A stretch of 64,000 bases of DNA from an uncultured Verrucomicrobiota bacterium (GTDB lineage: Bacteria; Verrucomicrobiota; Verrucomicrobiia; JABWAM01): positions 4,173 through 68,172 of the forward strand of contig CAZZBZ010000004.1 of NCBI GenBank assembly GCA_964653025.1, written 5' to 3'. A program made the position numbers and the translations under genes. Shown one piece after another: positions 14,314 through 48,945 of the stretch. Within the stretch, counting starts at the first letter, position 1. Each line of letters opens with the position of its first letter. Below the pieces are notes generated by a model. The model saw only the letters and a program-made list of their open reading frames with translations, made no database searches and was not told the origin of the DNA.

Positions 14314-15489
14314 CTAGCACGAACCCGGCTCGTCCGCAACCCGCCGCAGCAGGTCAGCCAGTCGGCGTGCGGTCCATGGATCCGCGCCCCCGTTCGCGGG
14401 GGCCGTCTTTTTTGGGGGACGTCGCCCCGCGCGCACCTCGTCGGAGATCGCCGCGGCGAGGGTGCGGGGATCCGCGCAGTCCACCACCCAGCCGCTCGCG
14501 CCGTAATGGTTGTGGGAGATGACCCGGCAGCCCGCCGAGCGCGCCTCCGCGATGGCCAGACCGTAGCTCTCGTGCACCGAGGAGGAGACAAAGAGGTCCG
14601 CCCGTCGGAGCAGGGCGGCCTTGCGCGACGAGGTCAGGTGCCCGGGAAACTCCACGCGGATGCGGGAAGGAACCCGCGCCGCGAGTCGACGGAGACCCCG
14701 CAGGCACCGGCGCCCCATCATGAATGCGGGCCCTCCACAGATCATCACGCGGACACGGCGCTCCCCCGTCTCGACGAGGGAAAGCGCGCGCAGGATGCGA
14801 TCCAGCCCCTTCTCGGGTGAAATCCGGCTCAGCGTGACGACGAGGTACTCGTCCTCTCCCACGTCCAGGTCGGCGGAATCCCCTTCCCTCGAAGGCGCGG
14901 AAAGGTCGCCCCATGGGATGACCTCGATACGCTCCGTCGGACAGTCGGGATAGCACCGTCGGATCACCTCGCGCATCGGCTCGGAAGGAACCACGATCCG
15001 CGCGCTGTGCGCCACGCAGTCGTGCTGTTTGCGAAAGACCAGCCGCAGGAGACCGGGCAGGGGAAAACGATGCCATCCCGCCGCCCTCTCCGGCGTCACA
15101 CGGCCGCGCAGGTAGATACGCGTGAAAAAATCCACCACATCCACGTGCCAGATGCTCGCCACGCGGAAGCCCGCCCGCCCAAGCGCGGCAAAGTCGGGCC
15201 CCTCGCTGAGGTCGTTGGTGAGAACGATGGTCTCCCGCGGATCGGCGCCAAGGATGCGCTTCGTGGTCGCGCGCTCGAACTCGCGACAGAAGCGCGCGTA
15301 GGCAAACTCGCCCATCTCGACGAGCGGCCGAGCGAGGCGCAGGCCGAGCGAGGACGGGCTCAACACCTCAAACTCAAACGGGCGCGCGGTCTGCCACTCC
15401 CGGGCAAGATAGTCGGCCACCGCCTTGCCCCCTCCCAAGGGCTCGGTTTCGGGGAAGTCGGCATGGGCCGCTGCAAAAATCACACGCAT
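14314..15489 (-). CDS. Glycosyltransferase family 4 (GT-B, GT1 superfamily)
   Basis: ..LVVTLSRISPEKGLDRILRA..VHESYGLAIAEARSAGCRVIS (E-X7-E-like region). Confidence 0.8.
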   Translation of the reverse strand: MRVIFAAAHADFPETEPLGGGKAVADYLAREWQTARPFEFEVLSPSSLGLRLARPLVEMGEFAYARFCREFERATTKRILGADPRETIVLTNDLSEGPDFAALGRAGFRVASIWHVDVVDFFTRIYLRGRVTPERAAGWHRFPLPGLLRLVFRKQHDCVAHSARIVVPSEPMREVIRRCYPDCPTERIEVIPWGDLSAPSREGDSADLDVGEDEYLVVTLSRISPEKGLDRILRALSLVETGERRVRVMICGGPAFMMGRRCLRGLRRLAARVPSRIRVEFPGHLTSSRKAALLRRADLFVSSSVHESYGLAIAEARSAGCRVISHNHYGASGWVVDCADPRTLAAAISDEVRAGRRPPKKTAPANGGADPWTARRLADLLRRVADEPGSC

Positions 15490-15594: not shown

Positions 15595-18500
15595 TCACGG
15601 AGATGGAACAGGTAACCGCGATGCGGCAACATCAAAGGTCGCCGCCCCTTCCCTGCCGCTCGTCACATCGGTCGCGCGCAGCGTGTAGCGTCCCGGCGGG
15701 ACGTTCAGCGCCACCGGCCACGTCCAGCGCCCCGCTCCCTCGCGGAGGACGGTGACGTCGCGCGACCCGGGGATCTCACGCCCCTGCGCGTCCTCGATCC
15801 GCAGGCGCACGGCGTGGAGATCGGCCTTCGGGCCATCCGTCTCAATCGCCAGGTCGCAGGCCAGTTCCCCTCCTGCGGCCACCTTCGCGACGGGGAGCGA
15901 CGCCTTCACGCCCGCGACGGCGTAGTCGAGTACCGCGAAGACCTTGACGTGCCCCGGCGGAAAGACCTCCGCGAAGGTCCCGGCCCGTCCGAGGTCGCGG
16001 TGCGAGCGCATCTCGTACACCTGCCCCTTGCGTCCGAGGCGCACGGTGAGCGGCTCCTTCACTTCCCGCAGGAGGTAATGGGCCACGAAGAGGGTGCGCT
16101 TCGAGGGCGTCTCGTAGTACCAGGTCTCGGTGTCGAAAAGCGGTTGTCCCCCCTGCTCGATGCGGCAGCGCACCGCGATCCCGGCCTCGCGAAGGACCCG
16201 TTCGAACACCCGCCAGTGGGATCGGCGGAGGGCCTGCGGGCCCTCGACCGTCGTGCTCTTCTCCTCGGCGACGCCACCCTTGAACACGGCATTGTGCCCC
16301 TCAAGGCGGGAGTTCAACCAGTAGACCCTCCCCTTGCCCGCTTCGCGGACCGTCCACAAGGGAGTCCCGGCGGACTCGGCAAGCACCTTCACCGCCGTGG
16401 CCACCTTCACCCCGTTGCAGCAGGCGCGAAGCTTGAGCGGGGCGTCGGCACCCGAAGCCCTCATCTCCATCCCCGGGCTGGGCGTCGGACCAGCGATCTC
16501 CACGCCGGTCAGGTCCTCGATCACCGGGCGAGCGTGGGGCGCCCCATGCAGGTCGCGCCAGCCGCAACGCCCCAGCGCGAAGAGCGTGCCCCCGTCCTCC
16601 ACGAATCCGCGAATGGCCTCCGCCTGCGCTGCGGAGAGGCACCCGGTTTCCGCCAGGACGAGCAGCCGCACGCCGTCCTTCCCGAGTTGCCCGGGCGCGA
16701 GGCCCTCGAGATTCACGAAGCGATGCTGGTAGCCAAGCTCCTCGATCACCGCCTTGGCCTTCTGCCCCAGCGCCCCAACATCCGCCATCCAGGAAGGGTA
16801 GGAGTATCCGATCGCGATTCCATCGTCCGTGAAACGGGAGTTGAGGATCAGGCGATCGATGCCGCCAGTGAGGTCAGGGAACTCCTCCTTCGCCAGCGCG
16901 GCGTAGCCTTTCGTGGGGCGCTGGTCGGACGTGGCCACCCCGTAGTTCCAGAAGCCGTTGTCCGTCATCGCCCAAAAGGCGCAGAAGCTCCCGCCATTGA
17001 GGAGCGACGCCCACGCTTCGGCCCGACGATCGGGCGTGATATCGAGCATCCCGTAACCCTGCCAACGGCCGTGGCACGCGCCGTCGCCAAAACAACGGAA
17101 CAACTCCTCGAGCACGCCCTGCGAGTCGCCGTAGCGCAGCGTGTAACGGTAATAACGCGCGTAGCGGGCCCAATCCACCGGCCACTCCGCCCTTGGCTCG
17201 TACACCCCGTGCTCCCCCACGCTGAGGTCCGGGCTGATCTCCGCCGCCCACTCTGCGGGCGCCTTCATGTAGTGCTCCCCCGCGACAGTCCCGAGATACA
17301 TCTGGAACTCCAGCCACGGCGCAAGGTTCGGCGCGACCTGCACCTCGGCACGTTTCTTCGGCACCACTTCGGAAAAATCGGCGAAGCTCGCGCCCCAGCT
17401 GCGATTGAGTTCCGCGATTCCGGCGTAACGCCCCTTCAGCCACTCGCGGAAGCCCGCCATCGTTCCCGGGCTGCGATCGAAGTCCACGGGAAACCGCCTC
17501 TCGTCATCGAGGGGAAAGAGCCGCGCCCCTTGCGCGGCGGCGGCCCGCACCGCCGCCTGCCACTTCTCCTTCATCGCCGTGATGGACGCGGCCGATGGCA
17601 GGAAGGGCGGGCTCATCGCGCAGGAGGCGTCATCGAGCGAGGGCTTCACCGGCGGCAGCGCGTAGCGTTGCTTGAGGGAGAGGCCGCCCGCGTTGGACGC
17701 CGCCGTCCCTCCCGAGGCGTAAAGCGTCTGCATGTTGTAGCTGTGCGAGTGCATGGTCAGGCCGAGGGAGCGCATCAGCGGCAGGAGGGCCTGCAGGTGA
17801 AGCGGGCGCCGCTCGGGCGCATCCGCCACGGCCAGCACGAACCGGTCCGCGTAGTCCGGTTTCGCGGGGATGAGGAACACGTCCGCGGTCGTCTCGGCAA
17901 GGACCCGCCCGCCCGACTCCAGGGTTGCCACCGCCTCGTGATAAACCGTCAGCGGCCTGAGTTTTCCCAACGGGAACTCGACCCCTTGCGGGGTCCCGTC
18001 AAGCTTCGCATTCCGCGCGTCCTCGACCACCACCCGCCCGAGGCGGTCCACGAGACGGAAGCGGAGCCGGGCATCCCCAACCTTGCCCGACCATTCCACC
18101 CGGCAGGTGCCCGTCTTTTCCGCGGGCTGGCAGGCCATCACGTCCACCTTGAGGTCCACGCCCTCCCCGCCCACCGCGCCGGCCGAGGCGAAGGCCAGCA
18201 ACTTCCCCGAGGGGTCGCGCGCGAAGACCTCCAGCGCGCAGGGCCCCGCGTCGGGCCGGGCCTTCAGCGGCACCTCGCAGGAGACCGCGCCGGGCGCAAA
18301 CTTTACCTTCGCCTCCCCTGCGGTCCGCTCCTCCCATCGCCGCGTGCGAACCCGCGCCTGCACGATGACGTCGGTCGCCGCGCCATCCCAGCGGAGATCC
18401 ACGGCCACGCGGTCGCCGCGCAGCGCCACGCGGGTCACGCGGGCCGGCCCCTCCTTGCGGGCGGCCCAGCGGGCGAGTTCCCCAAGCGCGGCGTAGGCGT

Positions 18501-20421
18501 ACTCGTAGCCGTGCCAGCGAAACTCCGCGACCGGCAGGGCCTTCTCTCCGGCGAGCACGCTCGTCCACTGCCCCAGGGCCGCCTCCCCGCCATCTCGATA
18601 GTTGCTCCAGCCGCACATCACGACCGCGACCCGCCCCTTGCCAAGTTCATAGCACTTCATGGGGGGAAGAGGGACGGCGCAGGGAGGCAGCGGGGACGAC
18701 GCGAGCGACTTCGCCTCGCCAAGGAGGTTGAAGAGCTCGACCTGCTCCACCTCGCTCCTCGCGGCAACGACGAGACCCATCCCGCCTTTCACCCGCTCCA
18801 TGATTTCCGCGATCAGTTCCTTCGGGAACCCAACCTGCCAATTCAGTCCGAGACTGACAAGGACCTGGGCATCGGTCGCGCGCAGTTTCGCCCGGAACCG
18901 ACGGACATCCCCGAAGTTGAGCGTGTCGGGCGGGCTCTGGATCTTCGCGATGGCGTGGTAGTCGTACTCGAGGTCCGAACGCTGGGAGATCTCGCGCAGG
19001 TGGCCAAGAGTGCAGTCGGCCGGAGCCGCGAAGAACACTCGTACCGCCCCCCCCGCGTGGTTCTTCGCCAGCGGCAGGTGCGGCGTGACGAACGACCGGT
19101 CGACCGAGGTAAACTGCGGGTCGAAGGAGGCCGGCTCCACGCCGCCACCCTCGACGCGTTCCCCGCGCTTCGCCCCCGCGGGCAGCGTCGCGGTGAACGT
19201 GAGACGACTCCGCCCGACCGTCAGCCCCTTCTCCATCATCAGCAACGGGACCCCGCCAGCCCCGCTCACCGACGCGCTGAGCACGTAGAGTCCTTCGTCG
19301 GACAGGGCCATACGGCTCTCGAGCGTCGCGGTTTCGCCAGCCTTGAGCACGGCCGACAGTTCCTGGTCGAGAACGGTCCGCCCATCCTCTTTCCGTGTGC
19401 AGCGCAGGAGGACTTTGACAGAGCGCTCCCGCCCGCTCGCGAGGAAGACGCGAAGCGGCACGTTCGCCCCCGTCTTGAGCTCCGCGGTGGCCACATCGTC
19501 GGGAAATACGGGCGCCGCCCCCACCCGAATCCCGCCGGCGAGGTCGTCCTGCATCCCGTCGAGGGCGCCGAAACCGGTGAAGGGCAGAAAAGTCGCGGCG
19601 AAGGTCACCGACCCGCCCGCCGTCACCTCTCGTTCTCGCAGGCTTGCCAGGTAGGCCGAGCCGACGGTTTTCCAGAGGTCCACCTTCATCCCGTCCACAT
19701 CCGCCCAGTCGAAAGAGAAGGCCGCGCCAAGACCACCCTCGCTGACGCCCCCCATCCACGCCCCGGCCAGGTCGGGCGCGTAGATGAACCTGGAACTGGA
19801 CTCATCGGCGCGGTCGAGGCCGAGGAGCCTGCCGTCGGCTGCCGGCAGGCAGACGGCGGTCGCCACGCGCCCGAGCGAGAGCCCCTGGAAGATTCCCATG
19901 CGCAACCGCCGGGGCTCGGTCCCGCGGTTCTCGATGGTCGTCTCGACGCGGACCGCGGGGGTGTCCTCGCGAAACGTCAGGCGCCGACGGCAGGCCATCT
20001 GGGTGACCCACTCACGCTCTGGGTCGGGTTTCTGGGAAACTTCGAATTCCAGGACTAGGTCGTCGGCCGACTGGCGCACGACCCGGTGGACCGCGGGCAA
20101 CCGCGGCCCCAGCCCGAGGTCCTCGGTAAAGAGATCGTTGCGCCTCGAGTAGTAGTTCTCCGCGCGCAACTCGACGTTGGAGGATTTGTAGATGAACGAA
20201 GATGCCGCGCCCGCGTTCGGCAGCGAGAAGGTCGCCTTGTAGAAACGGGTCTCGACCTCGACGGTCTGCGCTGGGCCGTTTCCGCCTTCGGGCAACCGGG
20301 CCACCACCCTGATCTCCGCCCGCGCTGCAGGAATCAGGAAACCCAGCACGCACGCCGCCAACGCAAGACGTCGAGGCACGCTTCCTCGCGCGCGAGATGG
20401 TAAAACGTGGTCGGGGACCAT
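15595..20421 (-). CDS. Very large secreted protein (1608 aa) with a GH42-like beta-galactosidase catalytic/trimerisation module in the C-terminal half
   Basis: Signal peptide RRLALAACVLGFLIPAARA. ..FREWLKGRYAGIAELNRSWGASFADFSEV (GH42-like) and DGVRLLVLAETGCLSAAQAEAIRGFVEDGGTLFALG (Glyco_hydro_42M-like). The + ORF 15814..20058 is its antisense. Confidence 0.75.
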   Translation of the reverse strand: MVPDHVLPSRARGSVPRRLALAACVLGFLIPAARAEIRVVARLPEGGNGPAQTVEVETRFYKATFSLPNAGAASSFIYKSSNVELRAENYYSRRNDLFTEDLGLGPRLPAVHRVVRQSADDLVLEFEVSQKPDPEREWVTQMACRRRLTFREDTPAVRVETTIENRGTEPRRLRMGIFQGLSLGRVATAVCLPAADGRLLGLDRADESSSRFIYAPDLAGAWMGGVSEGGLGAAFSFDWADVDGMKVDLWKTVGSAYLASLREREVTAGGSVTFAATFLPFTGFGALDGMQDDLAGGIRVGAAPVFPDDVATAELKTGANVPLRVFLASGRERSVKVLLRCTRKEDGRTVLDQELSAVLKAGETATLESRMALSDEGLYVLSASVSGAGGVPLLMMEKGLTVGRSRLTFTATLPAGAKRGERVEGGGVEPASFDPQFTSVDRSFVTPHLPLAKNHAGGAVRVFFAAPADCTLGHLREISQRSDLEYDYHAIAKIQSPPDTLNFGDVRRFRAKLRATDAQVLVSLGLNWQVGFPKELIAEIMERVKGGMGLVVAARSEVEQVELFNLLGEAKSLASSPLPPCAVPLPPMKCYELGKGRVAVVMCGWSNYRDGGEAALGQWTSVLAGEKALPVAEFRWHGYEYAYAALGELARWAARKEGPARVTRVALRGDRVAVDLRWDGAATDVIVQARVRTRRWEERTAGEAKVKFAPGAVSCEVPLKARPDAGPCALEVFARDPSGKLLAFASAGAVGGEGVDLKVDVMACQPAEKTGTCRVEWSGKVGDARLRFRLVDRLGRVVVEDARNAKLDGTPQGVEFPLGKLRPLTVYHEAVATLESGGRVLAETTADVFLIPAKPDYADRFVLAVADAPERRPLHLQALLPLMRSLGLTMHSHSYNMQTLYASGGTAASNAGGLSLKQRYALPPVKPSLDDASCAMSPPFLPSAASITAMKEKWQAAVRAAAAQGARLFPLDDERRFPVDFDRSPGTMAGFREWLKGRYAGIAELNRSWGASFADFSEVVPKKRAEVQVAPNLAPWLEFQMYLGTVAGEHYMKAPAEWAAEISPDLSVGEHGVYEPRAEWPVDWARYARYYRYTLRYGDSQGVLEELFRCFGDGACHGRWQGYGMLDITPDRRAEAWASLLNGGSFCAFWAMTDNGFWNYGVATSDQRPTKGYAALAKEEFPDLTGGIDRLILNSRFTDDGIAIGYSYPSWMADVGALGQKAKAVIEELGYQHRFVNLEGLAPGQLGKDGVRLLVLAETGCLSAAQAEAIRGFVEDGGTLFALGRCGWRDLHGAPHARPVIEDLTGVEIAGPTPSPGMEMRASGADAPLKLRACCNGVKVATAVKVLAESAGTPLWTVREAGKGRVYWLNSRLEGHNAVFKGGVAEEKSTTVEGPQALRRSHWRVFERVLREAGIAVRCRIEQGGQPLFDTETWYYETPSKRTLFVAHYLLREVKEPLTVRLGRKGQVYEMRSHRDLGRAGTFAEVFPPGHVKVFAVLDYAVAGVKASLPVAKVAAGGELACDLAIETDGPKADLHAVRLRIEDAQGREIPGSRDVTVLREGAGRWTWPVALNVPPGRYTLRATDVTSGREGAATFDVAASRLPVPSP

Positions 20422-20459
20422 CTTCTCCCGGATTCGAACGTGGTGGCGGGGAACCCGGA

Positions 20460-21713
20460 TCAGCGACCGCGGTTGAACTCCCGCACCGCATCGAGCATCG
20501 CCACGATGTTCTCCACGGGGGTGAGGGCCTGGACGTTGTGGATGGAGTCAAAAACGAACCCGCCGTTCTTCGAGAACACCTCGCAGCGCTCGAGAACCTG
20601 GCGGCGCACCTCCTCCTTCGTCCCGAACGGCAGCACCCGCTGGGTGTCCACCCCGCCTCCCCAGAACACCAGCTGGTCGCCAAAGCGTTTCTTGATCTCC
20701 GACGCTCCCATCCCGGTCGCCGAACACTGGACCGGGTTGATGATGTCGAAACCGCTCTCGATGATCGAGGGGAGCAGCGGCACGATTGCCCCGCAGGAAT
20801 GCTTGAAGGTCTTCCACCGGGTATTGCGGTGGACCCAGTCGTTCAGCGCCTTGTAGCGCGGGAGCCACAACTCGCGGAAGGTCGCCGCCGAGCAGAACTG
20901 GCTGACCTGCGTCCCGAAGTCGGTGCCGCATACGAAGAGCACGTCGAACGAATCGCCGAGGACGCGGTGGGCCTTCCGTAGATTCGCGAGGCCAACCTCG
21001 AGTTGTCGATCGAAGATCGCCGCCACATAATCCTTCCTCGTCGCCACCGTGACGTACCACTCCGCCACGTCTCGGATCCCCTTCGGCCGCCGCAAGAACG
21101 GCCCCGGCACCAGCGCGATATCCCCAAACCCCAAACCCCCGATCCCCGCAACCACCGCGCGCCCGGAGCCCTTGACCCGGTCCACCTCGGACTTGAGGTG
21201 CGCGAGCGTCTCGTCGGAAAGCGGCGTAAACTCCTCAAGGTTGTCCGCGGGATTCAGTTTCTCCTCATCGATCGGATCCTGGCGGATGATGGAATCGAAA
21301 AAATACCCCCCCGATGGCAGGCGCCCGCTCGCCGGAACGCTCATGTCCCCCTCGGGATAGATCAGCACGTCGTCGCCCTCCTTCCTGGTGTTGAACTTGC
21401 CCGGCACGAGAACGTCCTGCCCCCAGGGCGTCCGCCATTCCTTCCAGTCCTTCGGTGCGAAGCCAAAGATGGAACCCGGCGGCATCGGGGCCGCGGTGTC
21501 GATCCCCGCCGCATCGAGAAGGTCGTCCTCGATCCATCCGAGCATCTGGTAGGGCTCGTGAACCTTCACGGGGCGTTTCGCGAGCCCGTAGTGATTCCTC
21601 AACGCCGCCACGCAGGAAACGTGCATGCCGGTCACCGGGGTGCTCCCAAAATCCACCGGAACCGGGCCGGAACGGTGGGCAAGGGCCGTCAGAACCTTCT
21701 CGCGATGCGTCAT
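20460..21713 (-). CDS. Uroporphyrinogen decarboxylase (URO-D)-like family protein; MtaA/MtvB-type corrinoid methyltransferase fold
   Basis: MTHREKVLTALAHR.GPVPVDFGSTP..; 417 aa. The rest of ORF 20460..23498 upstream of 21713 is antisense to the S55 peptidase gene. Confidence 0.8.
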   Translation of the reverse strand: MTHREKVLTALAHRSGPVPVDFGSTPVTGMHVSCVAALRNHYGLAKRPVKVHEPYQMLGWIEDDLLDAAGIDTAAPMPPGSIFGFAPKDWKEWRTPWGQDVLVPGKFNTRKEGDDVLIYPEGDMSVPASGRLPSGGYFFDSIIRQDPIDEEKLNPADNLEEFTPLSDETLAHLKSEVDRVKGSGRAVVAGIGGLGFGDIALVPGPFLRRPKGIRDVAEWYVTVATRKDYVAAIFDRQLEVGLANLRKAHRVLGDSFDVLFVCGTDFGTQVSQFCSAATFRELWLPRYKALNDWVHRNTRWKTFKHSCGAIVPLLPSIIESGFDIINPVQCSATGMGASEIKKRFGDQLVFWGGGVDTQRVLPFGTKEEVRRQVLERCEVFSKNGGFVFDSIHNVQALTPVENIVAMLDAVREFNRGR

Positions 21714-21818: not shown

Positions 21819-23654
21819 GTGCCCCTCGCCTCCCGCTTCGCACTCGCACTGGTTCTCCTGGCCGGGAGCTCGTTCGCCGCGCCGCCCATCTTCCCTCTCA
21901 AGGACGTGAAGCCCGGACTGCGCGGCGAGTGCCACACGGTTTTCGCCGGCACCCGCGTGCAGGCCTTCCCTTTCGAGGTGATGGGTGTGGCGAAGGATTT
22001 TGCCGGCCCCGGCCGCGACATCATCTGGTGCAAGATGCTCGACGACCCCACGAAGCAGATGGTCGTCGCCGGCGGCATGAGTGGCAGCCCCTGCCTCATT
22101 GACGGGAAGAACATGGGTGCCCTCGCTTACGGGTGGACGTTTAACAAGGACCCGATCTTCGGCGTCCAACCGATCGAGTCCATGCTCGAGCTCTTCGAGT
22201 TCCGCGGCAACACGCGCGGCGGGCGCTCCCTCTTTGGCGACAAATCCTCCCCCCCACGCTCCTCCCCGGGCGTGCGGATGCTCAGTGCGCTGGCCGGTTT
22301 CGCGCTTCCCCCCGGACAAGCCCTTTCCGAACCGACCGCCAGCCCCATCCCCCTGCCCCTCGAGATCGGGGGCCTGCACCCGCTCGCCAGGGAGCCGGTT
22401 GCTCGCGCCCTCCAGGAAGCGGGGTTCTTCCCGATCTTCGGCGGCGGCGGCGCGAGCCAGGGCGGCCTGGGTGACGCCTCGGACCTGGTCCCCGGCTCCC
22501 CGCTCACCGGCCTCATCGCGCGCGGCGACCTCAGCATGGCCGCCACGGGAACCCTCACATGGCGCGACGGAGACCGCGTCCTCGCATTCGGGCACCCCTT
22601 CCTCGGCGCGGGTGCCATCGCGATCCCCATGGGCAAAGCCGAGATCATCGGGATCGTCTCCAGCTACATGCGCTCGTTCAAGATGGCCAACAAGGGACCC
22701 GTGGTCGGCACCCTCACCCAGGACCGGATGTCGGCGGTCGCCGGCTTCATCGGACGCGTCCCGAAGATGGTACCGATGACGGTCAAGGTCACCCGCGAGG
22801 GGGCCTCCCCCCGCACGCACCGGCTCGAGTTCTGCGATAACAAGTTCTTCACCCTTTCCGTCTACCAGACCGCCCTCCTCCAGTTCCTCGCAAACGTCAT
22901 GGAGCAGAGCGAAGAGGGCACCCTCGCAATCCGAAGCGAGGTCCGCCTCAAGGGCGCCCCGCCCCTCGTCTTCGAGGACATGTTCACAGGGGAAAGGGGC
23001 TCCTGGGCTCTCGATTCGGTGGTGGGACCCGCCATGCAACTCGGCAGCCTGTACGCGAACGACTTCGCGCAACCCGAGATTGAATCGGTCGCCGTCGAGG
23101 CCTCCTTCCGCCCCGCGGTCCACCAGCTCTCCATCGAGCAGCTCTCCGCCGAACCCCTTGAGGCCCGTCCGGGGGACGCCGTGCGCCTCCGCGCCATCTT
23201 CCAGCCCTGGCACGGCAAGCGGATCAGCAGGGAGTTCGAAGCCCGGATCCCCGAGGAAGCCAAGTCCGGCGAGGTGCAGGTCGTGCTCGCCGACGCGGCT
23301 CGTGCCAGCCAGCTTACCGGGAAGAGCGCCCTGCGGGGCGGCGGTTTCGTCATCACGGTCGGCGGCGCGCCGGATTTTTCGACCGCCGCGCGCAACCTCG
23401 AGGAGACCGTGCTCGGCCTCAATGACCGCCGGCCCTCCGACCGCCTCTATCTCCTCGTCACCCGCGCCGCGGAGGGGCTCAACCTCGGCGAACGCCACCT
23501 GCCGGCGCTTCCCGAGTCCGTCCGCAAACTCATTGCCGGGGATTCCACCGCGGGTTCCCCCTCCCGACTTTCGACCCTGATCCTTTCCGAGACCCAGGTT
23601 CCGATGCAGGCCCGCGTCGAGGGCAGCCGGAGCGTCACCATCCGAATCAAATGA
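21819..23654 (+). CDS. Secreted peptidase S55 (SpoIVB-like) family protein
   Basis: GTG start; signal peptide PLASRFALALVLLAGSSFAAP; serine protease motif GGMSGSPCLIDGKNMGA. Confidence 0.7.
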   Translation: MPLASRFALALVLLAGSSFAAPPIFPLKDVKPGLRGECHTVFAGTRVQAFPFEVMGVAKDFAGPGRDIIWCKMLDDPTKQMVVAGGMSGSPCLIDGKNMGALAYGWTFNKDPIFGVQPIESMLELFEFRGNTRGGRSLFGDKSSPPRSSPGVRMLSALAGFALPPGQALSEPTASPIPLPLEIGGLHPLAREPVARALQEAGFFPIFGGGGASQGGLGDASDLVPGSPLTGLIARGDLSMAATGTLTWRDGDRVLAFGHPFLGAGAIAIPMGKAEIIGIVSSYMRSFKMANKGPVVGTLTQDRMSAVAGFIGRVPKMVPMTVKVTREGASPRTHRLEFCDNKFFTLSVYQTALLQFLANVMEQSEEGTLAIRSEVRLKGAPPLVFEDMFTGERGSWALDSVVGPAMQLGSLYANDFAQPEIESVAVEASFRPAVHQLSIEQLSAEPLEARPGDAVRLRAIFQPWHGKRISREFEARIPEEAKSGEVQVVLADAARASQLTGKSALRGGGFVITVGGAPDFSTAARNLEETVLGLNDRRPSDRLYLLVTRAAEGLNLGERHLPALPESVRKLIAGDSTAGSPSRLSTLILSETQVPMQARVEGSRSVTIRIK

Positions 23655-29412: not shown

Positions 29413-30300
29413 TTAAGGGGGAGGTGAGGCGGGAGCGAGGGCTGCGGCCAGCGCTTGGATGAAGGCGGGGCTGGTACCGCAGCAGCCGCCGATGAAGGAG
29501 GCTCCCGCCGCCTTCACCTTCAGCGCGTGCTTCGCAAATTCTTCGGGCGCGACGCGGTAGACGGCCTTGCCCTCCACCATCTCGGGGAGGCCGGCGTTCG
29601 CCTTGATCCAGATCGGGCGCTTCGTCGCCGCGCGGAGCCGCTCGCAGATCGGGATGTAGCCCTCGATTCCCTGGCCGCAGTTTGCGCCGATGACGTCGGC
29701 TCCCGCCTCGTCGAGTTCCGCGGCGGCCTGCTCGGGAGTCGTCCCCATCATCGTGCGGTCGTGCCCCTTGCCGGAGTCGTAGACCATGGAGACCACGCAT
29801 GGCAGCCCGGTCGCCTTCCCCGCCGCGAGGGCGCAACGGGCCTCGGCCACCTCCGCGAAGGTCTCGATCACGAATCCCTGCGCCCCACCGGCGGCAAGCG
29901 CCGCCATCTGCTCGGCAAAGATCTTCTGCAGGTCCGCCTCCTCGATCTCACCCGCGGAAACCATCTTTCCCGTTGGCCCAACCGAGGCGAAGACCAACGC
30001 CCGATCGCCCGCCGCCTTGCGGGAGAGCGCGGTGCCGGCACGGTTGATCTCAAACAGCTTTTCGGCAAGTCCCTGCCGCTCGAGGACCACCCGGTTCGCG
30101 CCGAAGGTGTTCGTGAGGACCACGCGGCTGCCGGCCTCCACGTAGGAACGGGCGACCCGCTCCACGCGGTCGGGATGATCGAGGTTCCAGCAGTCGGGAC
30201 ACTCACCAGGGGCGAGGCCGAGCTTCTGGAACTCGGTGCCCCACCCACCGTCAGAAACCACGGGGATGGACTTCAGGAGGGATTCGAGGGTTGGGTGCAT
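29413..30300 (-). CDS. Homocysteine S-methyltransferase-domain protein (MetH Hcy-binding-domain-like; Zn thiol methyltransferase)
   Basis: VVSDGGWGTEF..VVLTNTFGAN..GANCGQG..FIGGCCGTSPAFI (Zn-binding Cys motifs). Confidence 0.85.
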   Translation of the reverse strand: MHPTLESLLKSIPVVSDGGWGTEFQKLGLAPGECPDCWNLDHPDRVERVARSYVEAGSRVVLTNTFGANRVVLERQGLAEKLFEINRAGTALSRKAAGDRALVFASVGPTGKMVSAGEIEEADLQKIFAEQMAALAAGGAQGFVIETFAEVAEARCALAAGKATGLPCVVSMVYDSGKGHDRTMMGTTPEQAAAELDEAGADVIGANCGQGIEGYIPICERLRAATKRPIWIKANAGLPEMVEGKAVYRVAPEEFAKHALKVKAAGASFIGGCCGTSPAFIQALAAALAPASPPP

Positions 30301-30503: not shown

Positions 30504-31130
30504 TCAGACGCCGAGAACTTTCCTGGCAACGGCCACGGCGGAGCTGGCGTTGTCGGCGTAGCCATCCGCCCCGATCTCGGTGGCGTACTGCTGCGTCACC
30601 GGCGCGCCGCCGATGATCACCTTCACGTTCGCGCGGACACCCTGGGTCTTGAGGCTCTCGATGGTGGTCTTCATCGAAGGCATCGTGGTGGTCAGCAGCG
30701 CGGAAAGTGCGATGACATTCGCGTTCTTCTCCTTCACGGCGGCGATGAACTTCTCGGGGGAGACGTCCACCCCGAGGTCAATCACCTCAAACCCACCGCC
30801 CTCGAGCATCGCGGAGACGAGGTTTTTGCCGATGTCGTGGAGGTCGCCCTTCACCGTCCCGATCGCAACGCGGCCCACGGGCTGGGCACCGGCCTTGGCG
30901 AGCAGCGGCTTGATCAGCTCGAGCGCGGCCTTCATCGCGCGCGCGGAAATGAGCAGCTCGGGCACGAAGTACTCGTTCGCCTCAAAGCGACGCCCCACCT
31001 CGGCCATCGCGGGAATCATCTGCTCGTTGACGAGCTTCTGCGGATCGGTGCCGTCAGCGAGGGCCTTCTCGGTAATGGCCTTGGCATCCTTGGCCTTACC
31101 TTCGAGCACGGCATTGTAGAGTTCCTTCAT
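30504..31130 (-). CDS. Cobalamin-binding corrinoid protein (B12-binding cap + Rossmann domain; MtbC/MetH B12-domain-like)
   Basis: GTVKGDLHDIGKN (DxHxxG), SALLTTTM, GGAPV motifs; 208 aa. Confidence 0.85.
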   Translation of the reverse strand: MKELYNAVLEGKAKDAKAITEKALADGTDPQKLVNEQMIPAMAEVGRRFEANEYFVPELLISARAMKAALELIKPLLAKAGAQPVGRVAIGTVKGDLHDIGKNLVSAMLEGGGFEVIDLGVDVSPEKFIAAVKEKNANVIALSALLTTTMPSMKTTIESLKTQGVRANVKVIIGGAPVTQQYATEIGADGYADNASSAVAVARKVLGV

Positions 31131-38121: not shown

Positions 38122-38295
38122 TGCAGTTATCCAGGTTCACGGTTAAGGGGTTCAACGGTTCAACGGTTGGAAAGAGTATATGGAACGAGCATTTTGACGG
38201 TTTCGAGGCGTGGCAATTGAAGCGAGAACTGACTTGCAGTGTGAAATCAACCGCTGAACCGTGAACCGCGGAACCCAACAACCCGTCCGACCAGT

Positions 38296-39303: not shown

Positions 39304-39340
39304 GCCCATGATTTTCTCCTCCATCCACGCGAACAACGAG

Positions 39341-39466
39341 GCCGCTCATCGGAGCCTCGATTCTGATCGGGGCGATGAGCGGCTCCATGCCCTGCATTCC
39401 GTTTTCGTGTGTTTCGTGTACTTCGTGGTAATCCTTCTGAATCCGTGTCCATCCGTGGCTTCCCCC
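39341..39466 (+). repeat. Structured repeat, copy A (divergent): 11-bp-stem hairpin + CGTG heptamer direct repeats + CATCCGTGGCTTC terminus, ending 9 nt before the polyferredoxin ATG
   Basis: gccgctcatcg-21nt-cgatgagcggc ..ttcgtgtgtttcgtgtacttcgtgg.. ctgaatccgtgtccatccgtggcttcc. Confidence 0.6.
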
Positions 39467-39474
39467 TCCTCACC

Positions 39475-46718: not shown

Positions 46719-47870
46719 CTACTTCGCGAGGAACGCGCGGATCTTCTCGCAGACGTAGTCCACCTCGGGCTGCGTGATGGACGGGAAGATGGGCAGCGAC
46801 AGGATCCGGTTCACGAGCTTTTCGGTGACCGGCAGCTTCGGGAGATCCTTGTAGAGCGAGGTCATCGCCGGCTGCTGGTGGTTCGGCACGGGATAGTGGA
46901 CGCCGGTCCCAATCCCCTGCTCCTTGAGGAACTTCGCCATCTCCTCGCGCTTCTCCACCTGGACGACGAACATGTGGTAGACAGGGACGCAGCCGGGTTT
47001 CTCAATTGGCAGTTGCACCTGGGGGAGGCCCTTGAGCCGCTCGCGGTACCAGCCCACTGCCACGCGGCGCTTCGCGTTGAAGGCGTCGAGGTGCTTGAGC
47101 TGCTCGCGGCCCACCGCCGCCTGGATCTCGTTGAACCGCATGTTGAACCCAACGATCTCGTGGAGGTACTTGTCCTTGCGCCCGTGGTTGCGGAGCATCT
47201 TCACCCGCTCCGCGATCGCGTCGTCGTTGAGCGTGAGGCAGCCGCCGTCGCCGAAGACCGTGAGGTTCTTCGAGGGATAGAAAGAGAAGGCACCGAAGGT
47301 CCCGAAGCTCCCGACCCGCCCGCCGTTCCAGGTCGCCCCGTGCGCCTGGGCGCAGTCCTCGATCCAGAAAAAGCCCTTCTTCTCCGCGATCGCCTTGATG
47401 CGGGCGATGTCCGCGGGATGCCCGTAGAGGTGCACCGGGATCATCCCGACCGTGCGCGACGTGATCTTCGACTCGAGGTCCGCGATGTCCACCGTATAGG
47501 TCTCGTCCACGTCCACGAAGACCGGCTTCGCGCCCGCATGGACGATCGGCTCGATGCTCGGGAACGCCGTGTGCGAGGGCACGAGGATCTCGTCGCCCGG
47601 CTTGAGCTTCAGCGAGAGGAGCAGGAGATGGACCGCCGAGGTCCAGTTCGAGGAAAGGACGCAGTGTTTCGTGCCGGTGTAGGTCGCGAGTTCCTTCTCA
47701 AACGCCTTGCACTCCGCGCCGAGAATGAAGTTCTCAGAATCCACCGCAGCGAGGATGCGGTCCTTGATGGTCTGGTCAATGTAAACGCGGGACAGGGGGA
47801 TTTTCACGGGCGCCTTGTATAAGGGGGAACGGGGCTTGCCGCAAGCCCCATCAGCCATCTCCAAATTCAT
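46719..47870 (-). CDS. DegT/DnrJ/EryC1/StrS-family PLP-dependent sugar aminotransferase
   Basis: ..FILGAECKAFEKELATYTG.., ..FSFYPSKNLTVFGDGG.. (PLP Lys region). The start is ambiguous: ATG 47870 or GTG 47807 (VKIPLSRVYID). Confidence 0.8.
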   Translation of the reverse strand: MNLEMADGACGKPRSPLYKAPVKIPLSRVYIDQTIKDRILAAVDSENFILGAECKAFEKELATYTGTKHCVLSSNWTSAVHLLLLSLKLKPGDEILVPSHTAFPSIEPIVHAGAKPVFVDVDETYTVDIADLESKITSRTVGMIPVHLYGHPADIARIKAIAEKKGFFWIEDCAQAHGATWNGGRVGSFGTFGAFSFYPSKNLTVFGDGGCLTLNDDAIAERVKMLRNHGRKDKYLHEIVGFNMRFNEIQAAVGREQLKHLDAFNAKRRVAVGWYRERLKGLPQVQLPIEKPGCVPVYHMFVVQVEKREEMAKFLKEQGIGTGVHYPVPNHQQPAMTSLYKDLPKLPVTEKLVNRILSLPIFPSITQPEVDYVCEKIRAFLAK

Positions 47871-47889
47871 CCATAGAGCCGCCCTGGGC

Positions 47890-48945
47890 TCACAATCCGT
47901 GCTCGATCGCCGCCTCGCGCAGGGCGAGAAAGTTCTCGAGCGGCACATCCTCGTGAAGTTCGGTGGATGACCCGACCATCAACCGCCCACCCGCGCCCTC
48001 GATCGCTCGGTGAACGGCATCCTTCACCTCCTGCGGTTTGCCAAACGGCAGGAGCTGGGAGACGTCGATGCCTCCCGCAAGGAAGAGATGCGGGTGCCGG
48101 CGATGGATCTCCGCGACGTCCATCCCCGCGAGAACCTCGATCGGGTTGAGCCCGTCGATCCCCGCCTCCACGAGCCCATCGAGGATCGGATAGAGGTTTC
48201 CGTCGGAGTGGAAGAGCACCTTGATCCCCTTGCGATGATAGGCCGCGGTCACGCGAGCAAGGCGGGCGAAGTAGTGCTTCTTGAACCACGCCGGGGCCAG
48301 GAGCGGCCCCGACTTGAACGCGATGTCGTCTCCCGCGAACACGGCCTCGATCCCGTGGCCCTCGGGAAGATGTTCGATCCACGACACCGATTCCACCGTC
48401 TGCCGTTCGAGGACCTCGTCAATGATCTCCGGGCAGTCCGCAAGGTAGTAGGAAAAGTCCTCCAGCCCCACTTCCCCGTAGGCACCCATCAGGCCAACCC
48501 CGCGCCCGGATGGGAAGAAGAACACCTCGCCGAGCCGGCGGCGATGGTCCGCCACGGAGGCCAGGAAATCCTCCATATCCCGCGCCTTCTCCTTCGTCCA
48601 GGCCGGATCGAAGGCGTCAAGTTCCTTCCTTTTGGCGGCCGCGTAGGCATCCGAGTCCGCGTAGTGCGCGTGCTCGTGCCAGACCGTCCAACGAAACTGC
48701 CGCAGTTGCCGCCCGTTGGGCCGGACACCCGTCCGCTCGCGCTCGGGCAGCCGAACGCTTGGTCGCGTAGCATCCACCGCCGGGGCAAAGGCGCGGAAGA
48801 CGACCTCCCGCGCATTTTGAAAATCGAGTTTCTCCCCGGCAAAATGGCTGATCACCGCGTCGTTTCGAAGCAGTTCATAGATCGGGGTGCGATCCGGCTT
48901 CTCTCCGCGCAACACCGCGCGGACGCGTTGGAGGGAGTCCTTCAT
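47890..48945 (-). CDS. URO-D-like family protein (second copy; corrinoid methyltransferase fold)
   Basis: MKDSLQRVRAVLRGEKPDRTPIYELL..; about 350 aa; paralogous architecture to 20460..21713. Confidence 0.8.
   Translation of the reverse strand: MKDSLQRVRAVLRGEKPDRTPIYELLRNDAVISHFAGEKLDFQNAREVVFRAFAPAVDATRPSVRLPERERTGVRPNGRQLRQFRWTVWHEHAHYADSDAYAAAKRKELDAFDPAWTKEKARDMEDFLASVADHRRRLGEVFFFPSGRGVGLMGAYGEVGLEDFSYYLADCPEIIDEVLERQTVESVSWIEHLPEGHGIEAVFAGDDIAFKSGPLLAPAWFKKHYFARLARVTAAYHRKGIKVLFHSDGNLYPILDGLVEAGIDGLNPIEVLAGMDVAEIHRRHPHLFLAGGIDVSQLLPFGKPQEVKDAVHRAIEGAGGRLMVGSSTELHEDVPLENFLALREAAIEHGL

Follow-up and report, generated by a model that had tools for sequence, protein, structure and literature searches.

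URO-D#1, a gene of an uncultured Verrucomicrobiota bacterium, probably encodes a demethylase of sugar-like compounds whose methyl groups end up in methionine. We draw this conclusion from operons of other genomes, in which its orthologues stand together with a B12 carrier protein, a homocysteine methyltransferase and sugar transporters. The family to which it belongs is very widespread and unstudied: its orthologues, which are 57-66% identical, occur in more than 10 phyla and at least 595 species, and literature searches yielded no biochemical or expression data for any member. Such identity across phyla would fit a housekeeping role too. The window, i.e., the whole 64,000-nt stretch of DNA that was analysed, contains the giant gene, the two URO-D-like genes and the corrinoid/homocysteine methyltransferase pair where an initial annotation had placed them:

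15595..20421, minus strand: giant secreted protein, 1608 aa (weak Pfam matches to GH42, E 6.4e-5, and GH42M, 1.9e-4)
20460..21713, minus strand: URO-D-like protein URO-D#1, 417 aa (Pfam URO-D, E 3.3e-11, C-terminal half only)
29413..30300, minus strand: homocysteine S-methyltransferase, 295 aa (PF02574, E 2.6e-64)
30504..31130, minus strand: corrinoid (B12) carrier protein, 208 aa (Pfam B12-binding_2, E 5e-24; B12-binding, E 3e-31)
47890..48945, minus strand: second URO-D-like protein, URO-D#2, 351 aa (Pfam URO-D, E 9.4e-13)

URO-D#1 is a cytoplasmic protein with a URO-D/MtaA fold. In the NCBIfam comparison it matched the MtaA/CmuA model (E 3.7e-10; 39.6 bits, the cutoff being 235) and not the hemE model (TIGR01464), and the RQAGR motif of HemE was not found in it. 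Its AF2 model (pLDDT 84) had MtaA (PDB 4AY7) as top PDB fold match (E 3.8e-10), followed by HemE structures, and structure comparison indicated that MetE shares this fold as well; at the sequence level, no PDB entry was matched, even with the family profile. The motifs HSCG, NPVQC and IHN were invariant across 18 orthologues, and the ligand positions mapped with MAFFT and hhalign predict a metal site made of His305-x-Cys307 and His392. Judged from these sequence and fold comparisons, in which the best matches were MtaA/CmuA, URO-D#1 is not HemE, the one identity that the initial annotation had named as fatal to its proposal.

The corrinoid protein is of the His-on type, with the motif DxHxxG present as GDLHDIGK, and its closest NCBIfam models were MtgC/pyl_corrinoid. 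The homocysteine methyltransferase is a stand-alone enzyme of the MetH N-terminal-module type, with zinc cysteines in GANC and GGCCG (Zn-Cys3). As previously remarked, neither protein showed a pterin-binding or reactivation domain; RACo and DUF1638 were not found in the 64-kb window, and Pfam and NCBIfam searches found no pterin-binding gene in it. The link drawn earlier between URO-D#1 and this distant pair was supported by conserved operons in other phyla, which encode orthologues of both. The window corrinoid protein was 52-73% (mostly 60-73%) identical to those encoded no more than 10 kb away from orthologues of URO-D#1 (27 loci), and the homocysteine methyltransferase was 53-62% identical to those within URO-D#1 operons. 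We counted a locus as linked if any member of the following set lay within 10 kb: corrinoid protein, homocysteine methyltransferase, DUF1638, the MtaA-like URO-D336 and RACo. This was the case for 32 of 80 loci, many of them from related Acidobacteriota, and for 23 of the 45 loci in which the orthologue had flanks of 5 kb or more in both directions, with crude gene calls made for the analysis. The usual order was URO-D417-CP-HcyMT-DUF1638-URO-D336-RACo, the corrinoid protein being at most 300 nt from the URO-D#1 orthologue in 15 loci. URO-D336 is a classical MtaA-like His-Cys-Cys enzyme (MtaA/CmuA, E 5.7e-39). In about 60% of the loci, the window included, the URO-D#1 gene lies amid unrelated genes, so that the association signals come from a minority of loci. 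We consider it very likely that URO-D#1 is corrinoid-dependent and works with the corrinoid protein and the homocysteine methyltransferase of the window.

XylE-like sugar porters were found within URO-D#1 operons at 9 loci in at least five phyla (binomial P about 5e-5). In all, 11 XylE-like MFS sugar porter genes were present in the 1.31 Mb of loci; 7 of these directly adjoin URO-D#1 in the same orientation and 2 end its operon. The lineages concerned are Verrucomicrobia, Kiritimatiellales, Planctomycetota (two orders), Hydrogenedentota, KSB1 and Acidobacteriota. The position of the porter is taken by transporters of unrelated families elsewhere: SSF-family solute symporters in 2 Gemmatimonadales loci and members of the RhaT family, an L-rhamnose-symporter family, in 3 Solibacteraceae loci. 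URO-D#1 was also flanked by genes for carbohydrate-active enzymes: a CE15 glucuronoyl esterase and a GH120-like/CBM6 protein, with a GntR-type regulator (L036), AXE1 and a GH120-like protein (L024), a GH36-like protein (L039, L050 and L060), GH38 with an enolase-superfamily dehydratase (L025), a GH94-like protein (L044) and GH106 (L076). Apart from corrinoid genes, nothing recurred among the 165 nearest neighbours except transporters (six XylE-like, three RhaT-family, two SSF-family), GH36/melibiase-like glycosidases at three loci and acetyl-xylan-esterase-like proteins at two. The transporters and enzymes in or beside the operons suggest, independently of the initial annotation that had proposed it, a sugar-like substrate. 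The substrates of the sugar porter family include cyclitols and some organic acids as well, and we give about even chances to the donor being a methylated sugar or cyclitol.

We propose that URO-D#1 is a donor-specific (MT I) substrate:corrinoid methyltransferase, i.e., the substrate-activating enzyme of a corrinoid system with its parts dispersed in the genome. A position on the donor side appears likely, and action on an imported methylated carbohydrate, the best reading, has in our view an even chance of being correct. A small methylated compound, for which an O-methylated sugar or cyclitol is the likeliest candidate, would enter the cytoplasm and bind to the putative Zn site (His305/Cys307/His392), where its CH3-O bond would be polarised. 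The corrinoid protein in its Co(I) form would attack the methyl group, URO-D#1 thereby loading the carrier, and the homocysteine methyltransferase would take over the methyl of CH3-Co(III) and use it to turn homocysteine into methionine. Where the cluster encodes a pterin-binding methyltransferase, the methyl could be passed to tetrahydrofolate instead and then oxidised. Carrier oxidised to Co(II) would be reactivated by RACo/RamA and DUF1638, which other genomes encode within the operon and which here lie outside the window. MtaB shows that a Zn-assisted attack of Co(I) on an aliphatic CH3-O bond, that of methanol, is feasible; we know of no precedent for a corrinoid enzyme cleaving a sugar methyl ether. 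If the proposal is true, sugar demethylation by the URO-D#1 system is independent of O2 and conserves the methyl group. The same net task, removal of the O-methyl groups that block sugar catabolism, is reportedly performed in marine Bacteroidetes by a protein of unrelated fold, the cytochrome P450 6-O-methyl-D-galactose demethylase of Reisky et al. 2018, which is said to depend on O2 and NADH and to release formaldehyde.

Of the known systems, the methylcobamide:CoM methyltransferases MtaA/MtbA/MtsA provide the best fold match, with a common TIM-barrel core and an HxC metal motif at the same position, and they too have a small corrinoid protein and an ATP-dependent reductive activase as partners. 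URO-D#1 differs from them in that the identity is only about 13%, the third ligand is His and not Cys, and beta-rich segments are added, which are seen in the secondary structure and are missing from shorter paralogues in the alignment; furthermore, its operons already contain a true MtaA-like paralogue (URO-D336). To our knowledge, the bacteria hosting URO-D#1 are not known as coenzyme M makers. The MT I enzymes of aryl O-demethylases, OdmB/VdmB (Acetobacterium dehalogenans), MtvB (Moorella) and MtoB (Methermicoccus), are divergent URO-D-fold proteins that transfer the methyl of an ether to a Co(I) corrinoid protein, as proposed for URO-D#1, and they belong to four-part systems comprising an activating enzyme. 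Compared by description, they act on phenyl methyl ethers and deliver the methyl to THF or H4MPT, whereas the context of URO-D#1 points to sugars or cyclitols (alkyl methyl ethers, with a poorer leaving group) and its homocysteine methyltransferase would be a built-in acceptor. Type 1 mlp clusters (Kountz & Balskus preprint, PMC10418091), which are widespread and of largely inferred function, also combine several URO-D-like paralogues with a corrinoid protein and Ram/RACE, and have no THF methyltransferase. However, mlp proteins share about 30% identity with MtaA and possess His-Cys-Cys sites; they come from strict anaerobes, mostly Firmicutes, and are tied to S/Se-methyl metabolism (PMC10418091). 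The URO-D#1 family has diverged much further and its site is His-Cys-His. It is associated with a homocysteine methyltransferase and with sugar porters, and occurs commonly among Acidobacteriota and PVC bacteria.

With one Cys and two His, the URO-D#1 site is unlike both the carboxylate-rich metal site of aryl O-demethylases and the His-Cys-Cys site of thiol methyltransferases (PMC10418091), so that an S- or N-methyl donor is possible. The same corrinoid system could indeed serve a non-carbohydrate donor (lignin methoxyaromatics, methylthiols or DMSP products, methylamines or betaines, methyl halides), or URO-D#1 could act on the acceptor side like MtaA, from methyl-corrinoid to a thiol; we regard this as possible but doubtful. 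The substrates of all URO-D-fold corrinoid methyltransferases known to have been characterised are methyl halides, thiols or aryl methyl ethers (PMC10418091), a Cys is kept in the URO-D#1 site, the carriers are soil and sediment heterotrophs that meet lignin-derived methoxy compounds, and MtaB, present in some URO-D#1 clusters, would suit an MtaA-like acceptor role. Yet no aromatic-catabolism, sulfur or amine genes recurred among the 165 nearest neighbours, where transporters, GH36-like and esterase-like proteins did, and the operon has acceptor-side enzymes of its own, the MtaA-like His-Cys-Cys protein and the homocysteine methyltransferase.

It is unlikely that URO-D#1 stands in for the pterin-binding (CH3-THF:corrinoid) module of a housekeeping split MetH, a methionine synthase that draws on no external methyl donor. 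The CP-HcyMT-DUF1638-RamA-like set does correspond exactly to the split-MetH core that genetic work established in Phaeobacter (PMC5764234) and Ruegeria (PMC12478193). In this split MetH/MtgBCDE hub of roseobacters (Price 2018; Mausz 2025), which shares with the URO-D#1 system a stand-alone corrinoid protein, homocysteine methyltransferase, DUF1638 and RamA/RACo-type activase, exchangeable donor modules feed one corrinoid protein, and catabolic demethylation is tied to methionine synthesis (PMC5764234, PMC12478193). The donor modules are, however, the MttB-superfamily MtgB (glycine betaine) and the pterin-binding MtgD, whereas the donor candidate here has a URO-D fold and is joined in the operon by another URO-D, which is MtaA-like. 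A pterin-free window, very high conservation across phyla and the fold shared with MetE, a CH3-THF binder, are also consistent with a housekeeping synthase. Against it, a canonical Pterin_bind methyltransferase adjoins URO-D#1, the corrinoid protein and the homocysteine methyltransferase in L032 and L061, and accompanies URO-D#1 with MTHFR and FTHFS in Terracidiphilus clusters; the presence of this module, and of URO-D336 in the operon, argues that URO-D#1 is not the THF module. In addition, at most loci URO-D#1 has neither the corrinoid protein nor the homocysteine methyltransferase beside it, and sugar porters and carbohydrate-active enzymes share the operon. Tandem or nearby paralogues (L061, L071, L006 and L020) and a halo of 645 paralogue clusters (30-45% identical, E<=1e-30) are as expected for substrate-specific catabolic enzymes.

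The initial annotation, which is partly supported as a whole, had paired URO-D#1 with the giant gene and placed it directly downstream; since both genes are on the minus strand, URO-D#1 lies upstream, 5' of the giant gene. The 38-nt gap contains a ribosome-binding site (GGGAGAAG) and no terminator-like site, and the giant gene is probably co-transcribed with URO-D#1 here. The giant protein is secreted and GH42-like, as had been claimed. It starts with what is, by inspection, a Sec signal peptide (MVPDHVLPSRARGSVPRRLALAACVLGFLIPAARA|EIRV), followed by an N-terminal beta-rich/propeller-like region, a complete three-domain GH42-like module (residues ~860-1500) and a C-terminal Ig/MG-like domain. 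The AlphaFold model of residues 860-1608 (pLDDT 84.6), i.e., the C-terminal 750 residues, matched all three domains of GH42 beta-galactosidases (Foldseek E 5.6e-27, TM 0.62-0.70), and the family profile matched GH42 PDB sequences (E 1e-11). Like GH42 beta-galactosidases/alpha-L-arabinopyranosidases, it has a TIM barrel, a GH42M-like domain and a beta-sandwich, with an invariant LDDER (E974) at the acid/base position; it differs from them by an identity of only about 15%, some 860 extra N-terminal residues and a candidate nucleophile position (1151) occupied by Ala, where 9 of 17 homologues have Glu. Only 18 family members were found, the named ones in Verrucomicrobia MAGs.

That this enzyme frees O-methylated sugars for demethylation by URO-D#1 and URO-D#2 in one dedicated anaerobic pathway is very unlikely, and as a conserved system this model is largely refuted. 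The short gap on a common strand, the true GH42 fold with its Glu, and a giant homologue (L085) with a URO-D#2-type gene 2.6 kb away are in its favour. However, a giant homologue was found in 0 of 82 URO-D#1 loci, and the giant homologues of L083, L084 and L087 have no URO-D neighbour. In the closest relatives URO-D#1 is directly followed by GT4; the giant gene is thus a recent, lineage-specific insertion 3' of URO-D#1 and not a conserved component. The candidate nucleophile is missing, URO-D#2 has no corrinoid context, and the term 'anaerobic' is unsupported, many carriers being assigned to genera or families that are known to be aerobic (Terracidiphilus, Gemmatimonas, Bryobacteraceae, Solibacteraceae). 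A supply of substrate by the giant protein is, on its own, quite unlikely.

Another reading has the URO-D-like genes encode uroporphyrinogen decarboxylases, whether typical or divergent, or other decarboxylases that need no cofactor and have no tie to B12. It accords with the Pfam family name and the second-best fold matches but is exceedingly improbable given the missing hemE match and RQAGR motif, the HxC metal motif of URO-D#1 and its operons with corrinoid protein, RACo and DUF1638. For URO-D#2, which lacks corrinoid evidence, a decarboxylase may hold. URO-D#2 had been taken as a second copy in the same system; it belongs to a different, likewise widespread URO-D-fold subfamily (HSDG...NPIE; His-Asp, no Cys), and in three other genomes genes of its type had neither corrinoid nor DegT neighbours. 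It is only about 25% identical to the operon URO-D336, and in its alignment with MtaA 4AY7 (E 2.4e-4) HxC is replaced by HSD and GC by SS, the zinc cysteines of MtaA thus becoming Asp and Ser. Its location beside a DegT-like gene stood: 59 nt at its 3' end are shared with the annotated start of the DegT/PseC-like aminotransferase ORF (46719..47948).

The window (G+C about 65%, in part near-identical to a contig of the Verrucomicrobiia MAG GCA_049318025.1) contained all the genes on which the initial annotation had based its proposal of a corrinoid-dependent sugar O-demethylation system. The principal ones are as follows.

21713..20460, minus strand: URO-D#1, URO-D-like protein of 417 aa, first in minus-strand order
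20421..15595, minus strand: giant gene, secreted GH42-like protein of 1608 aa, second in minus-strand order
15489..14314, minus strand: GT4 glycosyltransferase gene, 3' of the giant gene and followed by a PAS protein gene
31130..30504, minus strand: corrinoid protein (CP), after a PfkB kinase gene
30300..29413, minus strand: homocysteine S-methyltransferase (HcyMT), followed by dnaG and rpoD
48945..47890, minus strand: URO-D#2, URO-D-like protein of 351 aa, abutting a DegT/PseC-like aminotransferase gene

HemE binds its substrate through an N-terminal RQAGR motif (Arg37/Arg41 in human UROD). This motif was missing from URO-D#1, URO-D#2 and all paralogues examined, and neither protein matched the hemE model TIGR01464 at E ≤ 0.01; judged by motif and model, URO-D#1 is not HemE, and this alternative could be set aside. 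The Pfam URO-D model matched only the C-terminal half of URO-D#1, and TIGR01463 (MtaA/CmuA) likewise matched only the C-terminal half of URO-D#1 and URO-D#2 (39.6 bits for a cutoff of 235). URO-D336, an MtaA-like paralogue encoded in operons with URO-D#1 orthologues, matched the latter model over its full length (134 bits). No PDB sequence was matched by URO-D#1 using phmmer or with the family profile, and its link to solved structures came only from a fold search. Its AlphaFold model (pLDDT 84) adopted the URO-D/MtaA TIM-barrel fold, with MtaA (4AY7, E 3.8e-10, TM 0.55/0.66) ranking first, followed by HemE and then MetE. As modelled, URO-D#1 is a very divergent member of this fold. The His-x-Cys motif of MtaA was retained in the family as an invariant KHSCG, and because both MAFFT and hhalign (the latter with the MtaA-like paralogue of the operon, probability 85%) mapped the invariant His392 onto the second Cys of MtaA, we predict a metal site formed by His305-x-Cys307 ... 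His392. The zinc site of MtaA/CmuA is His-x-Cys ... Cys, whereas that of URO-D#1 would be His-x-Cys ... His. Since one Cys and two His fit neither of the published ligand patterns (PMC10418091), the site does not settle the nature of the methyl donor.

Other indications came from gene neighbourhoods. In a 5.9-Mb genome, the URO-D#1 orthologue is the first gene of an operon with the order URO-D(422)–B12-binding protein–S-methyl_trans–DUF1638–URO-D(336)–RACo, the last being a reductive activase of corrinoid proteins. At least one of these partners was found within 10 kb in 32 of 80 further loci, and in 23 of the 45 that had 5 kb or more on each side; gene calls in fetched loci were made with our own heuristic. 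The typical order is URO-D417-CP-HcyMT-DUF1638-URO-D336-RACo, where URO-D417 stands for URO-D#1. A corrinoid protein gene lay at most 300 nt from the orthologue in 15 loci. The corrinoid proteins of these operons are 52–73% (mostly 60–73%) identical to the CP of the window, and their homocysteine methyltransferases 53–62% identical to its HcyMT; the operons include the Verrucomicrobia loci L037 and L051 (L numbers denote loci fetched from other genomes).

In the window, CP and HcyMT lie about 9 kb from URO-D#1, past holB and a GH30 gene. CP is a stand-alone B12-binding_2/B12-binding protein with DxHxxG/SxL/GG, and HcyMT a stand-alone PF02574 protein with three zinc cysteines. No pterin-binding (PF00809), MetH-reactivation, RACo or DUF1638 gene was found within the 64 kb, which agrees with the earlier description of a pair devoid of pterin and reactivation domains; a pterin-binding module is present in the orthologous clusters L032 and L061, and RACo and DUF1638 in many loci. 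The ensemble of CP, HcyMT, DUF1638 and RamA/RACo is the 'split MetH' core demonstrated genetically in Phaeobacter (PMC5764234), and in Ruegeria this core acts as a hub to which exchangeable donor modules deliver methyl groups (PMC12478193); the window likewise holds a stand-alone CP and HcyMT pair. Because operons elsewhere join orthologues of all three proteins, the long-range link to the pair at 29.4–31.1 kb, initially only surmised, now has real comparative-genomic support as judged from gene order. We consider it likely that URO-D#1 acts as a corrinoid methyltransferase together with the CP and HcyMT of the window. The PfkB-family sugar kinase gene (31329-32264) is directly upstream of CP on the same strand, with a gap of about 200 nt; its assignment as an adenosine kinase or a specific sugar kinase was not retained, the matches being generic and weak. 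The GH30 gene (27943-29367) is convergent with HcyMT.

As the window pair lacks the THF (folate) module of split MetH, URO-D#1 could in principle be that module. This is unlikely, and we down-weighted it because Pterin_bind genes co-occur with URO-D#1 in L032 and L061, the latter with two tandem URO-D#1 copies in the same cluster. Terracidiphilus clusters hold a canonical Pterin_bind methyltransferase, MTHFR and FTHFS alongside URO-D#1, CP, HcyMT, DUF1638 and RACo, and some clusters add MtaB, a parallel, methanol-specific donor enzyme. Furthermore, the operon already encodes a full-length MtaA-like His-Cys-Cys protein, URO-D336, URO-D#1 being the divergent one, and substrate-specific MT I enzymes (the donor-side substrate:corrinoid methyltransferases) are usually the divergent members. 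Finally, the tandem or nearby paralogues and the large halo of more distant ones look like substrate diversification. On these grounds, we read URO-D#1 as a putative MT I enzyme.

The corrinoid C1 clusters beside URO-D#1 (L032 13747-18384, L061 1602-6194, L041 5542-9854 and L035 17432-19480) belong to MAGs assigned to Acidobacteriaceae/Terracidiphilus and Terriglobia, lineages of a type usually regarded as aerobic heterotrophs. In L032 and L061 the MTHFR has an acetogen-type C-terminal domain, and in L035, L041, L043 and L079 an MtaB methanol methyltransferase gene (E about 1e-158) adjoins that of the corrinoid protein. By gene content, the L032/L061 and MtaB-type clusters look like a corrinoid-based route of methanol or methyl oxidation; for MtaB in Acidobacteria, the literature gave general surveys only.

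What URO-D#1 might demethylate is suggested by its other neighbours. After corrinoid genes, the commonest were transporters and a few carbohydrate-active enzymes, while no aromatic, sulfur or amine catabolic genes recurred. A XylE-like MFS porter gene lies immediately beside URO-D#1, in the same orientation, in L014, L024, L026, L036, L060, L065 and L076, and closes the URO-D#1 operon in L030 and L035. Five of these porters (L024, L036, L060, L065 and L076) were scanned; they scored 339–544 bits with the XylE model (cutoff 608) and exceeded the sugar-porter subfamily cutoff. In all, nine of the 11 XylE-like porter genes present in 1.31 Mb of loci were linked to URO-D#1 (P about 5e-5 for random placement), and four of them, from three phyla, are 51–59% mutually identical. 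RhaT-family permeases occupied the equivalent place in three Solibacteraceae loci, and SSF symporters in two Gemmatimonadales loci. In L060, GH36-like–URO-D#1–porter stands back to back with RACo–DUF1638–CP–URO-D336. Genes flanking URO-D#1 are listed below.

Carbohydrate-related genes flanking URO-D#1 in loci from other genomes
L036: CE15 glucuronoyl esterase and GH120-like/CBM6, with a GntR-type regulator
L024: AXE1 and GH120-like
L039, L050, L060: GH36-like
L025: GH38 and enolase-superfamily dehydratase
L044: GH94-like
L076: GH106

What chiefly leads us to propose that the substrate is an imported sugar or cyclitol is the repeated recruitment of unrelated transporters (XylE-like, RhaT-family and SSF-family) beside URO-D#1, and we give about even chances to a methylated sugar or cyclitol being the methyl donor. 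In MtaB, Zn-polarised methanol is attacked by Co(I), and by analogy a Co(I) attack on a sugar methyl ether is chemically plausible; we know of no precedent for it with sugars, and our literature search found no report of corrinoid- or cobalamin-dependent demethylation of methylated sugars. Xylan and pectin are methylated polysaccharides. Clostridium cellulovorans raises cobalamin-related proteins on both, which its authors left unexplained (PMC6547498), and this rise may be relevant to a corrinoid-dependent handling of glycan methyl groups.

The gene order around the giant gene had been described with the URO-D-like gene downstream; on the minus strand it is upstream. The gap between the two is 38 nt long and contains a ribosome-binding site, GGGAGAAG; a promoter/terminator scan of this gap revealed no terminator-like site and nothing else informative. 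Both genes are probably co-transcribed locally. The two closest relatives, whose URO-D#1 is 87% and 80% identical, lack the giant gene and have URO-D -> GT4 -> PAS/DUF4912 -> GH57; in another, with an 82%-identical URO-D#1, the gene adjoins GH57. By this comparison, the giant gene is a lineage-specific insertion. By tblastn, no giant protein homologue was found in any of 82 URO-D#1 orthologue loci, and the homologues in other genomes sit among unrelated genes, one of them with a URO-D#2-type gene 2.6 kb away. These findings rule out a conserved pairing, which had been the headline of the initial annotation: as far as gene contexts tell, the two genes form no conserved functional unit and their proximity is a local accident of gene insertion. 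We therefore regard a functional involvement of the giant protein as very doubtful.

The giant protein belongs to a tiny family of 18 proteins, 35–49% identical; the few homologues with organism names come from Verrucomicrobia MAGs. Its Pfam matches were weak (GH42, 22.9 bits for a cutoff of 21). The AlphaFold model of residues 860–1608 (pLDDT 84.6) matched the GH42 enzymes 8IBT/3TTS/5DFA (Foldseek E 5.6e-27, about 735 aligned columns) and superposed on all three GH42 beta-galactosidase domains with TM 0.62–0.70; the TIM barrel, the GH42M domain and the C-terminal beta-sandwich are all present in the model. The family profile also matched GH42 PDB sequences at E 1e-11. Glu974, in the invariant LDDER of the family, aligned 3 residues before GH42 residue 164 of 4UCF, and by alignment occupies the acid/base (beta4) position. 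Catalytic activity is uncertain because the candidate nucleophile position (residue 1151, its beta7 strand being assigned from the secondary structure of the model) is Ala in the window protein and Glu in 9 of 16 aligned homologues, the others having Ala (6) or Ser (1). The N-terminal ~860 residues include a propeller-like repeat (Pizza/NHL-type PDB matches), and the C-terminus resembles an alpha2-macroglobulin MG domain.

The homologue search returned at least 8000 homologues of URO-D#1, all with E ≤ 0.001. A relative was encoded in 595 of the 600 genome stretches examined, corresponding to at least 595 GTDB species, a lower bound because it was counted among the matches listed. In the 80 loci kept, the orthologues are 57–66% identical across phyla and the carriers comprise Acidobacteriota, Planctomycetota, Verrucomicrobiota, Lentisphaerota, Kiritimatiellia, Gemmatimonadota, Hydrogenedentota, Latescibacterota, KSB1, Fibrobacterota, Omnitrophota, Spirochaetota, Acidimicrobiia and Clostridia. 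With clustering at 50%, 645 clusters of relatives passed E ≤ 1e-30, most of them full-length paralogues with 30–45% identity. Public names of the relatives were limited to 'uroporphyrinogen decarboxylase family protein', 'methyltransferase' and 'hypothetical', and no cultured carrier or curated name was found among the cluster members, which come from MAGs only. By these comparisons, the family is very large, unusually conserved and unannotated. Tandem full-length duplicates occur in L061 (8696-11236), extra partial copies in L071 (9226-13184), and adjacent paralogues 34–38% identical to URO-D#1 in L006 (17702-18895) and L020 (3459-4694); such paralogues display variant ligand sets, HSD…H and HCC…H. 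These duplicates and variants suggest an ongoing diversification. In three loci from different lineages (L020 398-1774, L036 13798-15255 and L069 8480-9937), genes for B12-binding radical-SAM proteins adjoin URO-D#1 or a paralogue of it, and the Phaeobacter split-MetH cluster also includes a radical-SAM gene (PMC5764234).

The URO-D#1 system is a very widespread, unannotated variant of known corrinoid methyltransferase systems, in which a URO-D-fold methyltransferase probably feeds CP and HcyMT with methyl groups from methylated carbohydrates. More tentatively, and in our view somewhat improbably as a whole, the family would demethylate O-methylated sugars or cyclitols in a cobalamin-dependent, O2-independent and methyl-conserving way; its carriers number at least hundreds of species, among them Acidobacteriota, PVC bacteria, Gemmatimonadota, Hydrogenedentota and KSB1. 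URO-D#1 would catalyse a Zn-assisted attack by Co(I) on the alkyl methyl ether of the sugar or cyclitol, a reaction known so far, to our knowledge, only for methanol (MtaB), and the methyl group would be handed via the shared corrinoid protein to homocysteine, for methionine synthesis, or to tetrahydrofolate. The qualification 'anaerobic' was dropped because many carrier MAGs are assigned to genera or families that we take to be aerobic. Split-MetH/Mtg systems also operate in aerobes (PMC12478193).

If this reading is true, methyl groups carried by plant and algal glycans would be a hitherto unrecognised source of C1 units and methionine in soils, sediments and waters. Sugar O-methyl groups, as in 4-O-methyl-glucuronate in xylan, 6-O-methyl-galactose in red-algal galactans, 2-O-methyl-xylose and 2-O-methyl-fucose in pectin, and methyl-inositols, block ordinary catabolism, and the sole enzymatic route for their removal known to us is an O2-dependent P450 of a few marine Bacteroidetes. 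A corrinoid route would explain how abundant glycan degraders outside Bacteroidetes handle methylated sugars, and would add carbohydrates to the phenyl ethers and methanol covered by Co(I) methyl-ether chemistry. Such a route would also give soil and aquatic heterotrophs a new reason to depend on B12, and would directly link the breakdown of polysaccharides with methionine and C1 metabolism. Even with another donor, the family (>8000 sequences, at least 595 GTDB species) is a large unannotated gap with a clear, testable operon model.

URO-D#2 had been assigned to the same corrinoid system, which our results do not bear out. It represents another widespread and conserved subfamily (65–70% identity across phyla) with the motifs HSDG…NPIE and the ligand positions His-x-Asp ... 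Ser, Ser standing at the position of the second Cys of MtaA, and no Cys ligands. In three other genomes, its neighbours were GFO/IDH/MocA oxidoreductases, GH29/GH4, and ABC transporter or MFS genes, and neither corrinoid genes nor DegT were found beside it, so that the DegT association was also rejected. With about 25% identity to URO-D336, other ligands and no corrinoid context, it was discarded as the second URO-D of the operon. A corrinoid dependence of URO-D#2 is unsupported, a link with carbohydrates is possible, and the function of the subfamily may not be methyl transfer. Genes of this type are found at 47890-48945 in the window, in L085 (4330-5376), twice in L089 (7001-8059 and 10692-11741), and in L090 and L091. 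As listed, the DegT-family ORF (46719-47948) shares 59 nt with the 3' end of URO-D#2, and residue 57 is the first one covered by its Pfam match; translation of this ORF probably starts further downstream than listed, and the two genes may be translationally coupled.

A few other genes of the window deserve mention. Two large genes (21819-25891) are divergent from URO-D#1. The product of one, of 611 aa, matched nothing in Pfam or NCBIfam; that of the other, of 746 aa, weakly matched beta-propeller (Reg_prop/WD40-like) and Ig-like models. At 37102-41424, genes for DUF6599 and DUF362 proteins and for a 671-aa membrane polyferredoxin resembling a NapH/NapG fusion look like an uncharacterised redox module. 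Finally, a clear match to HpnH, the adenosyl-hopene transferase (11587-12741, E 1.8e-158), indicates a predicted capacity for extended hopanoid synthesis in this Verrucomicrobiia MAG.
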